Shown here in pieces: positions 14,035 through 14,716 of a DNA stretch of 64,000 nt. The stretch lies in the IMG/VR virus record IMGVR_UViG_3300017975_000002; one strand, given 5' to 3'. Position numbers and translations under genes: made by a program. The notes beneath the pieces are model-generated. The model did no database searches, had not been told where the DNA came from, and saw nothing but the letters and a program-made list of their open reading frames with translations. Source of the DNA: a virus. The number at the start of each line of letters is the position of its first letter. Positions within the stretch are counted from its first letter, which is position 1.

Positions 14035-14337
14035 TTGAAGCGCGTCATCTGGAAGTTCGAGGTTCCTGCCGAGGGTCAGTTCACGGTCGAACTACCGACG
14101 CCGTTTCACATCCTCACTGTACAGATGCAAGACGACAAACCGCAGATGTGGGTCAGCGTAAACGGTGATCGCTCAGCAACGCGTCTGAAACCGACCTTCG
14201 TTGTCATTCCTACGGGCCGTGTATATGACATGCCAGAGGACGGCCGGCTCGATTACGTTGGCACGTTCCAACCTGCACCTGGATTAGTGTTTCATCTCTT
14301 TTGGATACATCGCGAGGAGTGGACTGGGCATGCGTGA
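14035..14337 (+). CDS. hypothetical protein
   Basis: TTG start 9 nt after RBS gaggag (ORF 13978 trimmed). Confidence 0.35.
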   Translation: MKRVIWKFEVPAEGQFTVELPTPFHILTVQMQDDKPQMWVSVNGDRSATRLKPTFVVIPTGRVYDMPEDGRLDYVGTFQPAPGLVFHLFWIHREEWTGHA

Positions 14338-14716
14338 AGCTGGCGCCGTAGTGGCGAAAGATGGTTCTATTATTTACTGGCACGTCCCTGACAACCGATC
14401 AGGCGGTGCGTTGCCAGATAGCCAGCAGCTTTGGCAGGTGCTTTGGGAGAACCGCAAACGTCTGCGCGGCTTCGCGCACAGCCATCCAGGTGGTGGTATT
14501 CCAGGTCCTTCACACGAGGACCTGACTACATTCGCTGCGATTGAGGCTGGCCTTGGAGTGCGCCTGCAGTGGTGGATCGCTAATGCAGACCGCGTCGTCG
14601 AGCTGCAATGGATAGGTCCTGATCGGCTTGCGTACGGTCAGATTCTCCTTGGACCTGATGATCCAGACTGGGCAGCAGAGCTGCGCCGTCGATCGGAGAT
14701 CCCAGTTGCGACATGA
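14330..14716 (+). CDS. JAB/MPN (JAMM) metalloprotease
   Basis: 'FAHSHPGGGIPGPSHEDL' is the H-x-H-P-x7-S-x2-D JAMM zinc motif; 128 aa, single domain. Confidence 0.7.
   Translation: MREAGAVVAKDGSIIYWHVPDNRSGGALPDSQQLWQVLWENRKRLRGFAHSHPGGGIPGPSHEDLTTFAAIEAGLGVRLQWWIANADRVVELQWIGPDRLAYGQILLGPDDPDWAAELRRRSEIPVAT

Follow-up and report, generated by a model that had tools for sequence, protein, structure and literature searches.

The JAB/JAMM protein encoded in the viral DNA analysed here is probably the dedicated peptidase of a phage-encoded five-gene system for the activation of a ubiquitin-like (Ubl) protein. The five genes encode a vWA/MIDAS protein, a protein that we call p313, the JAB, the Ubl and a minimal ThiF-type E1. 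From their sequences, related huge phages seem to encode a machinery of their own for ubiquitin-like tagging, which we read from the membership of the JAB in a conserved five-gene set together with a Ubl and an activating enzyme. The model draws on folds, the conservation of catalytic residues, the precursor pattern of the Ubl and strict synteny, and its enzymatic steps are predictions. We refer to the whole 64,000-nucleotide stretch (IMG/VR record IMGVR_UViG_3300017975_000002) as the window; the positions of its features are given in Table 1.

Table 1. Positions of the module genes, their sequence elements and other features in the window
Feature	Position	Strand	Length (aa)	Basis or remark
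vWA/MIDAS protein	3248..5113	+	621	Pfam VWA_CoxE and VWA_2
Accessory protein	5305..5889	+	194	between the vWA and p313 genes
DCD-family protein	6415..7014			Pfam PF22769
p313	7294..8241	+	315	second module gene
Rv2179c-like 3'-5' exoribonuclease	8786..9532			
Tad2-like (anti-Thoeris) domain protein	9708..10199	+		92 bits
DUF7352 protein	14035..14337	+		
JAB/JAMM (MPN+) single-domain metallopeptidase (predicted activity)	14330..14716	+	128	ORF, homologues, motif, AF2/Foldseek
JAMM zinc motif HSHPGGGIPGPSHED, H50-x-H52-x8-S61-x2-D64	14477..14521	+	residues 50-64	direct sequence reading
Ubl precursor	15070..15510	+	146	
Ubl beta-grasp core	15124..15366	+	~19-99	
Ubl core end RPKTAYG, Gly99 codon	15364..15366	+		window sequence
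Ubl Cys/His-rich tail	15367..15507	+	47	downstream of Gly99
Major vault protein homologue	16535..19219	+	894	Pfam MVP_shoulder 85 bits, Vault_3 39.6 bits
Minimal ThiF/MoeB-type E1-like adenylating enzyme	23134..23706	+	190	Pfam ThiF 86.7 bits
RtcB RNA ligase with N-terminal extension of ~380 aa	24925..27144	+		387 bits
tRNA gene	29303..29369	+		Rfam
tRNA gene, tRNA-Arg(tcg)	29588..29659	+		Rfam and ARAGORN
Large conserved phage protein	48961..51393	+		phrog_2426, 568 bits
Cluster of nucleotide-sugar epimerase-like and glycosyltransferase-like genes	51383..61005	-		

The JAB is a single-domain member of the JAMM/MPN+ superfamily

A sequence-only reading of the window had proposed a single-domain JAMM/JAB metalloprotease with an intact zinc motif, and both points hold. 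The ORF runs from an ATG start to a TGA stop, and a search of 5.8 billion proteins identified 156 homologues of ~125-130 amino acids with 48-66% identity. When 56 of the homologues were aligned, H50, H52, S61 and D64 were invariant and E3 was conserved in at least 90% of the sequences. The ORF and its motif are more than a chance occurrence, because the homologues, the residue conservation and the AF2 model agree. Members of the main family have the spacing HxHx8SxxD instead of the textbook x7, which is present in the divergent JAB of locus L152. All family members start with M-x-E, and hence the family begins at the strand carrying the catalytic Glu and does not have the usual N-terminal helix and strand.

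The window JAB scored 22.3 bits against Pfam Prok-JAB (PF14464; E=1.2e-4), for which the gathering cut-off is 25, and many of its homologues have a precomputed PF14464 match. Neither single-sequence nor profile searches of PDB chains returned a solved JAB structure, and the fold was therefore taken from the AF2 model (mean pLDDT 93.6) and Foldseek. The top 20 Foldseek matches in the PDB were all JAMM/MPN proteins (probability about 1.0, TM 0.5-0.59), the best being Cap3, Rpn11, PfJAMM1 from Pyrococcus, a Caldiarchaeum Rpn11 homologue, BRCC36, CSN5 and AMSH. In BFVD, the sole close relative (TM 0.92, 44% identity) is a UniProt entry that is probably the orthologue from Virus Rctr197k. By its motif and MPN fold, the JAB is a member of the JAMM/MPN+ metallopeptidase superfamily with predicted peptidase activity.

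The gene upstream of the JAB encodes a DUF7352 protein; its end, with the stop codon, shares 8 nt with the JAB start (ATGCGTGA). We considered this protein as a partner of the JAB and rejected it, as it is missing from all other loci; being found in the window locus only, the gene is probably an insertion. A scan of positions 13800..15700 detected no terminator and one promoter-like site (14720..14748), which is no more than expected by chance, and Rfam had no match near the five-gene module.

Five gene families are conserved in order and strand

We scanned 68 JAB-seeded IMG/VR loci, located on contigs of mostly 130-620 kb, with purpose-built HMMs. The module was present and colinear in all 68, and every locus with enough flanking sequence contained the five genes in order on one strand, with the Ubl gene directly after the JAB gene. 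Seeding with p313 led mostly to contigs already in the JAB set, and added ten loci from contigs outside it and the GenBank locus L077; these carry the module, including the most divergent loci L150 and L152, save for pieces that were cut off or undetected. Judged from the contig names, the Ubl-seeded loci were on contigs already found. All-vs-all clustering of the ORFs in 76 distinct loci, mostly huge-phage contigs, showed these five families alone to be universal, in the same order and on the same strand. Within +/-10 kb the JAB was present in all 76 loci, p313 and the Ubl in 75 each, the vWA protein in 74 and ThiF in 71. The next commonest families were HNH homing endonucleases (38/76) and a 195-aa protein (28/76). 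The regions of +/-10 kb around the 76 loci, which come from genomes of 200-600 kb, contained no recognisable E2, and an E3 was not recognised either. The sequence-only reading had linked the JAB to an E1-like protein and a Ubl. Consistent with such joint action, the three genes are syntenic in every related locus with enough flank; the Ubl, vWA/MIDAS and p313 genes of the window had been absent from that reading.

Gene maps of related contigs of 330-430 kb show a compact arrangement of the module, and in the window insertions have dispersed its genes across 20 kb. Genes for LAGLIDADG and HNH homing endonucleases are repeatedly inserted between module genes (for example L008 10677..11615 and L004 9420..10004, and at many other loci), as is typical of conserved phage core genes. 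The gene for a homologue of the eukaryotic major vault protein lies between the Ubl and E1 genes of the window and is not among the families conserved across related loci. The other genes of the window listed in Table 1 include that of an RtcB RNA ligase just downstream of the E1 gene, and of the two tRNA genes identified by Rfam, ARAGORN detected only the second.

The module was found in IMG/VR viral contigs, metagenome assemblies and MAG contigs, the sole other source being the GenBank phage Rctr197k. The GenBank annotation of the module genes in Virus Rctr197k is hypothetical plus 'ThiF-like', and the module is embedded there in large tRNA arrays. In a search of 185,579 species genomes, members of the JAB family occurred on only 17 MAG contigs (loci L154-L170). 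At least seven of these are binned as Myxococcota, Polyangia or Sandaracinaceae, which may point to the hosts of the phage clade or to phage contigs that were binned wrongly.

The Ubl is predicted to be made as a precursor

The gene next to the JAB gene on its downstream side encodes a protein for which profile searches gave no match in Pfam, PADLOC, NCBIfam or the PDB. Its AF2 model has a beta-beta-alpha-beta-beta core at a pLDDT of about 97 and a disordered tail; the protein thus combines a beta-grasp fold with a flexible C-terminal tail and the terminal Gly of a Ubl. We identified 122 homologues, which share a core of ~75 amino acids ending in a near-invariant RPKTPFG. The C-terminal heptad [RK]P[KR]TX[FYWLM]G is present in 118 of 120 homologues. 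Of these 118 sequences, 21 stop at the heptad Gly and 72 extend past it by 1-4 residues; the others have tails of 6-130 amino acids. Among the longer tails are Cys-rich ones (~26-34 aa), others of different sequence (40-57 aa) and entire domains (122-130 aa); residues past the Gly are unconserved. Across 64 distinct JAB-bearing loci the tail has 0 residues in 11, 1-4 in 37 and more in 16, and the core ends in FG in 60 loci and in YG in the others. Even the very divergent Ubls follow this pattern, that of L152 ending in RPSAAFG and a stop and that of L150 having RPKVPFG followed by an acidic tail. A terminal Gly that is invariant but masked by variable extensions is characteristic of Ubl precursors, and the Ubl thus appears to be one, in need of a processing protease.

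In the homologues P0185, P0211, P0180, P0199, P0206 and P0230 an extra domain is fused after the FG, either RyR (PF02026) or a domain of ~125 amino acids with the motif CYFIPSDGFV...GHHPTGGWPYDGKDH. These proteins resemble ubiquitin-fusion proteins, and the fused domains may be cargo freed by the JAB. Locus L175 has a separate ORF for a Cys/His-rich protein of 72 amino acids after the Ubl gene (10284..10502), at the place of the fused tail in the window. The two may represent split and fused states of a small zinc-binding element, although their similarity is weak.

The E1-like protein is a minimal adenylating enzyme

The E1-like gene that had been noted in the window is confirmed by a Pfam ThiF score far above the cut-off of 28.1 bits. 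The best PDB match of the protein is E. coli MoeB, followed by Uba4, SAE2, UBA3 and UBA5, and in PADLOC it matches the E1 domain of CBASS Cap2 (3e-17). It scores below the cut-off of every NCBIfam equivalog and does not belong to any named cellular E1 family. Residues G8, G10, G13, D30, K53, D93, D96, R101 and C148 are invariant in 59 sequences, and the protein keeps the Rossmann GxGxxG and the ATP/Mg residues of the ThiF/MoeB/E1 superfamily. Cys148 aligns with Cys187 of MoeB, the crossover-loop Cys. Compared with MoeB, the protein is about 30 residues shorter at either end and has neither of the two CxxC zinc motifs nor the Arg of 'NLQRQ'.

The module contains a vWA/MIDAS protein and p313

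The vWA protein, which has 620-640 amino acids in related contigs, consists of a conserved N-terminal region of ~400 amino acids and a C-terminal vWA domain. Its MIDAS motif is intact (D429-x-S431-x-S433, T492 and D519), with residues that are invariant in the family. In most orthologues the C-terminal sequence KPxWA(A) is conserved right up to the stop codon. The nearby RtcB and vault genes prompted us to consider a Ro60/TROVE-like RNA-binding protein, and this possibility was dropped because neither Pfam nor PDB profile searches detected TROVE/Ro60.

p313, which has 313 amino acids in related contigs, consists of an N-terminal domain, a helix rich in Arg and Glu and a C-terminal domain. Its sole universally conserved Cys, at position 277, is within the sequence D-A-G-[IV]-C-L. 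A scan of 57 members against Pfam returned only noise, and a PDB profile search gave no match. Visual inspection suggested a resemblance of the 'GICL' loop to E2s, but in hhalign comparisons with five canonical E2s the probability was 0.2, which does not support p313 as an E2. A profile search of 1.8 billion representatives identified 473 clusters, and almost all of the best 150 have a length of about 300 amino acids and no clear added domain.

The protein encoded between these two genes had no Pfam match. It was assigned to the ~195-aa accessory family by length and position only, and is probably not a core part of the module.

The module differs from known JAB, E1 and Ubl systems

That prokaryotes combine a JAB with an E1 and a Ubl has been described before (Iyer, Burroughs and Aravind 2006, PMC1779556). 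The CysO/MoeZ/Mec+ and QbsE/QbsC/QbsD neighbourhoods, like the module, combine a stand-alone JAB with a ThiF-type E1 and a small beta-grasp protein, the C-terminal Gly of which can be masked by residues that the JAB removes. The module differs from them in that its Ubl ends in FG instead of GG, neither the rhodanese domain nor the Zn motifs are present in its E1, and it is phage-borne, contains the vWA protein and p313, and has no neighbours for sulfur assimilation or biosynthesis. Archaeal SAMP/UbaA/HvJAMM1 and Thermus TtuB/TtuC share with the module the E2-independent activation of a Ubl and a deconjugating JAMM, and structurally the small single-domain JAMM of the module is closest to PfJAMM1 (TM 0.59). 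However, the SAMP and TtuB Ubls end in GG and double as sulfur carriers, and these systems are cellular and lack counterparts of the vWA protein and p313.

Bil (BilABCD) and type II CBASS (Cap2/Cap3) use, like the module, a JAB isopeptidase together with E1 chemistry on a C-terminal Gly, but both are encoded by the host and not by the virus. The module has an E1 and a Ubl as in Bil, but no BilB-type E2 was recognised within +/-10 kb in the 76 loci. In contrast to type II CBASS, neither a CD-NTase nor the E2 domain of a Cap2 E1-E2 fusion is present among the Pfam annotations of its neighbours or the conserved families, and its E1 is a stand-alone domain. The lambda/T1 tail proteins I (a Ubl) and K (JAB plus NlpC/P60) are encoded side by side, and as in the module a phage Ubl has a conserved C-terminal Gly followed by a domain. 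Unlike K, which is encoded in the tail cluster beside gpJ, the module JAB has no NlpC/P60 domain; moreover, it is encoded outside a tail cluster and with an E1.

The C-terminal end of the Ubl, an invariant Gly followed by a few variable residues or a fused zinc-binding domain, is also known from the eukaryotic ubiquitin-ribosomal protein fusions, Atg8, SUMO and NEDD8. Atg8 even has the aromatic-Gly end of the module Ubl. However, there is no detectable sequence relationship to the eukaryotic precursors, and the module Ubl would be processed by a JAMM metalloprotease and not by a Cys protease.

A link between vWA proteins and Ubl systems has been described for cellular vWA-MoxR/FtsH ternary systems (Kaur et al. 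2020, PMC7159879). As in the module, the genes of the JAB, E1 and Ubl are linked to that of the vWA protein in these 'FtsH ternary' systems; in contrast to them, the conserved neighbours in the module, as annotated by Pfam, do not include MoxR AAA+, FtsH, a RING E3, an E2 or an EAD1/caspase effector, and the N-terminal region of the vWA protein is different.

Hence, the module does not have the defining features of Cap3/CBASS, Bil, Mec+/QbsD, lambda K/I or FtsH ternary systems, and a full-text search of the literature found no description of a phage five-gene Ubl module. The triad theme is already known; what appears to be new is that a virus encodes a minimal Ubl system of this kind, together with two novel partners.

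Proposed mechanism and alternative explanations

We propose that the Ubl is made as a precursor in which a tail follows ...RPKT(P/A)(F/Y)G; it is Cys/His-rich with 47 residues in the window and has 0-130 residues elsewhere. The JAB would cut after the Gly and free its carboxylate. By homology, the E1 would then adenylate the Gly and may hold the Ubl on its invariant Cys148. The activated Ubl could be transferred to an acceptor, most likely an amine group on a protein, and the vWA/MIDAS protein and p313 might serve as receptor, transfer component or substrate; both of these steps are speculative. The JAB is kept in those 11 of the 64 distinct loci whose Ubl already ends at the Gly, and thus it probably acts also after activation, reversing the product as an isopeptidase. 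We count against the model that the E1 is unusually small, that the JAB scores under the Pfam threshold and has TM values of only 0.5-0.6 to known JABs, and that the five genes of the window are spread over 20 kb.

A more far-reaching version of this model is conceivable, which we put forward tentatively: huge phages of one clade, perhaps with Myxococcota as hosts, could encode a self-contained minimal Ubl protein-conjugation system that tags host or phage proteins during infection. Such a system would use a pro-Ubl ending in FG, the JAMM protein as maturase and deconjugase, and the 190-aa E1. p313 would be a Cys-bearing transfer or substrate protein, with its Cys in 'DAGICL', and the MIDAS protein a Ubl receptor. 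As no E2 or E3 was recognised and p313 gave no signal against canonical E2s, protein conjugation is a putative outcome.

The main rival to a JAB acting as a Ubl peptidase in the five-gene system is a role in sulfur transfer. The Ubl would then be a carrier like ThiS, MoaD, CysO or TtuB; the JAB would expose its Gly as Mec+ and QbsD do, the E1 would adenylate the Gly, and a thiocarboxylate would donate sulfur, for instance for the thiolation of tRNAs of the phage or its host or for the synthesis of a thio-metabolite. We consider this unlikely. The known sulfur carriers and Ubls ThiS, MoaD, CysO, Urm1 and the SAMPs end in GG, and the module Ubl has FG or YG at this position. Moreover, the E1 has no rhodanese domain; a sulfurtransferase, a PP-loop ATPase or a synthase that consumes sulfur is not found among the universally conserved neighbours; a carrier role would leave unexplained the vWA/MIDAS protein and p313, which are strictly conserved; and the JAB is kept where the Ubl needs no trimming.

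The remaining alternatives are disfavoured because the JAB is obligatorily linked to a phage Ubl and E1. The sequence-only reading had suggested that the JAB processes the phage's own Ubl or removes marks applied by the host. The downstream beta-grasp Ubl with its FG end and variable tails speaks for the former, and the latter, as a countermeasure to CBASS or Bil, gained no specific support. A counter-defence deubiquitinase would strip the host Ubl marks of Bil or, like Cap3, undo the Cap2-mediated conjugation of the CD-NTase in type II CBASS. Cap3 is indeed the top structural match of the JAB in the PDB, and the window encodes a Tad2-like anti-Thoeris protein, so the phage invests in anti-defence. 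Yet the Cap3 match (TM 0.50, 17% identity) is no better than those to Rpn11 and archaeal JAMM1 (TM 0.57-0.59), the PADLOC JAB model matched with E=0.0077 only, and an anti-defence enzyme would have no need to adjoin always the phage's own Ubl and to be linked to its E1. We therefore regard this explanation as improbable.

We see even less reason to assume a function in virion assembly, with the JAB and Ubl as a pair like lambda K and I, in which the JAB would free the Ubl domain while the tail tip is assembled, and with an unrelated E1. A JAB and a Ubl with a C-terminal Gly do occur in tail clusters (PMC1779556), the JAB has a weak PHROG match to the 'tail protein' family phrog_5556 (E=6.9e-5), and its structural matches in BFVD include JABs of phage tail components. 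However, the JAB has no NlpC/P60 domain, the annotated neighbourhoods that we inspected had no tail or structural genes and none are conserved beside the module, and the genes of the E1, the vWA protein and p313 always accompany the JAB-Ubl pair in co-linear order. Least credible of all, to the point of being nearly negligible, is a RadC-like JAB with a role in nucleic-acid metabolism and none as a peptidase. RadC-like phage proteins are among the BFVD matches and RadC (2qlc) is among those in the PDB, but at rank 22 and with a lower TM of 0.45; the JAB has no N-terminal extension, and its gene context is a Ubl and an E1 instead of DNA-repair genes.

Implications for phage biology

So far, Ubl conjugation in the conflict between phages and bacteria has been a weapon of the host, as in type II CBASS (Cap2/Cap3) and Bil; here it is apparently encoded by the virus. 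The module is strictly conserved in hundreds of uncultured huge phages and has no recognisable E2 or E3. If it conjugates the Ubl to proteins, it would be the first Ubl conjugation pathway of a virus of bacteria, and one that operates without a recognisable E2 or E3. It would then provide a very small and tractable E1-Ubl-DUB system and a new route by which phages rewire host or viral proteins. If the Ubl carries sulfur instead, the module would be a new phage-encoded route of thiolation. Either way, there is now a testable function for five families that are at present annotated as hypothetical, including p313 with its at least 473 sequence clusters.
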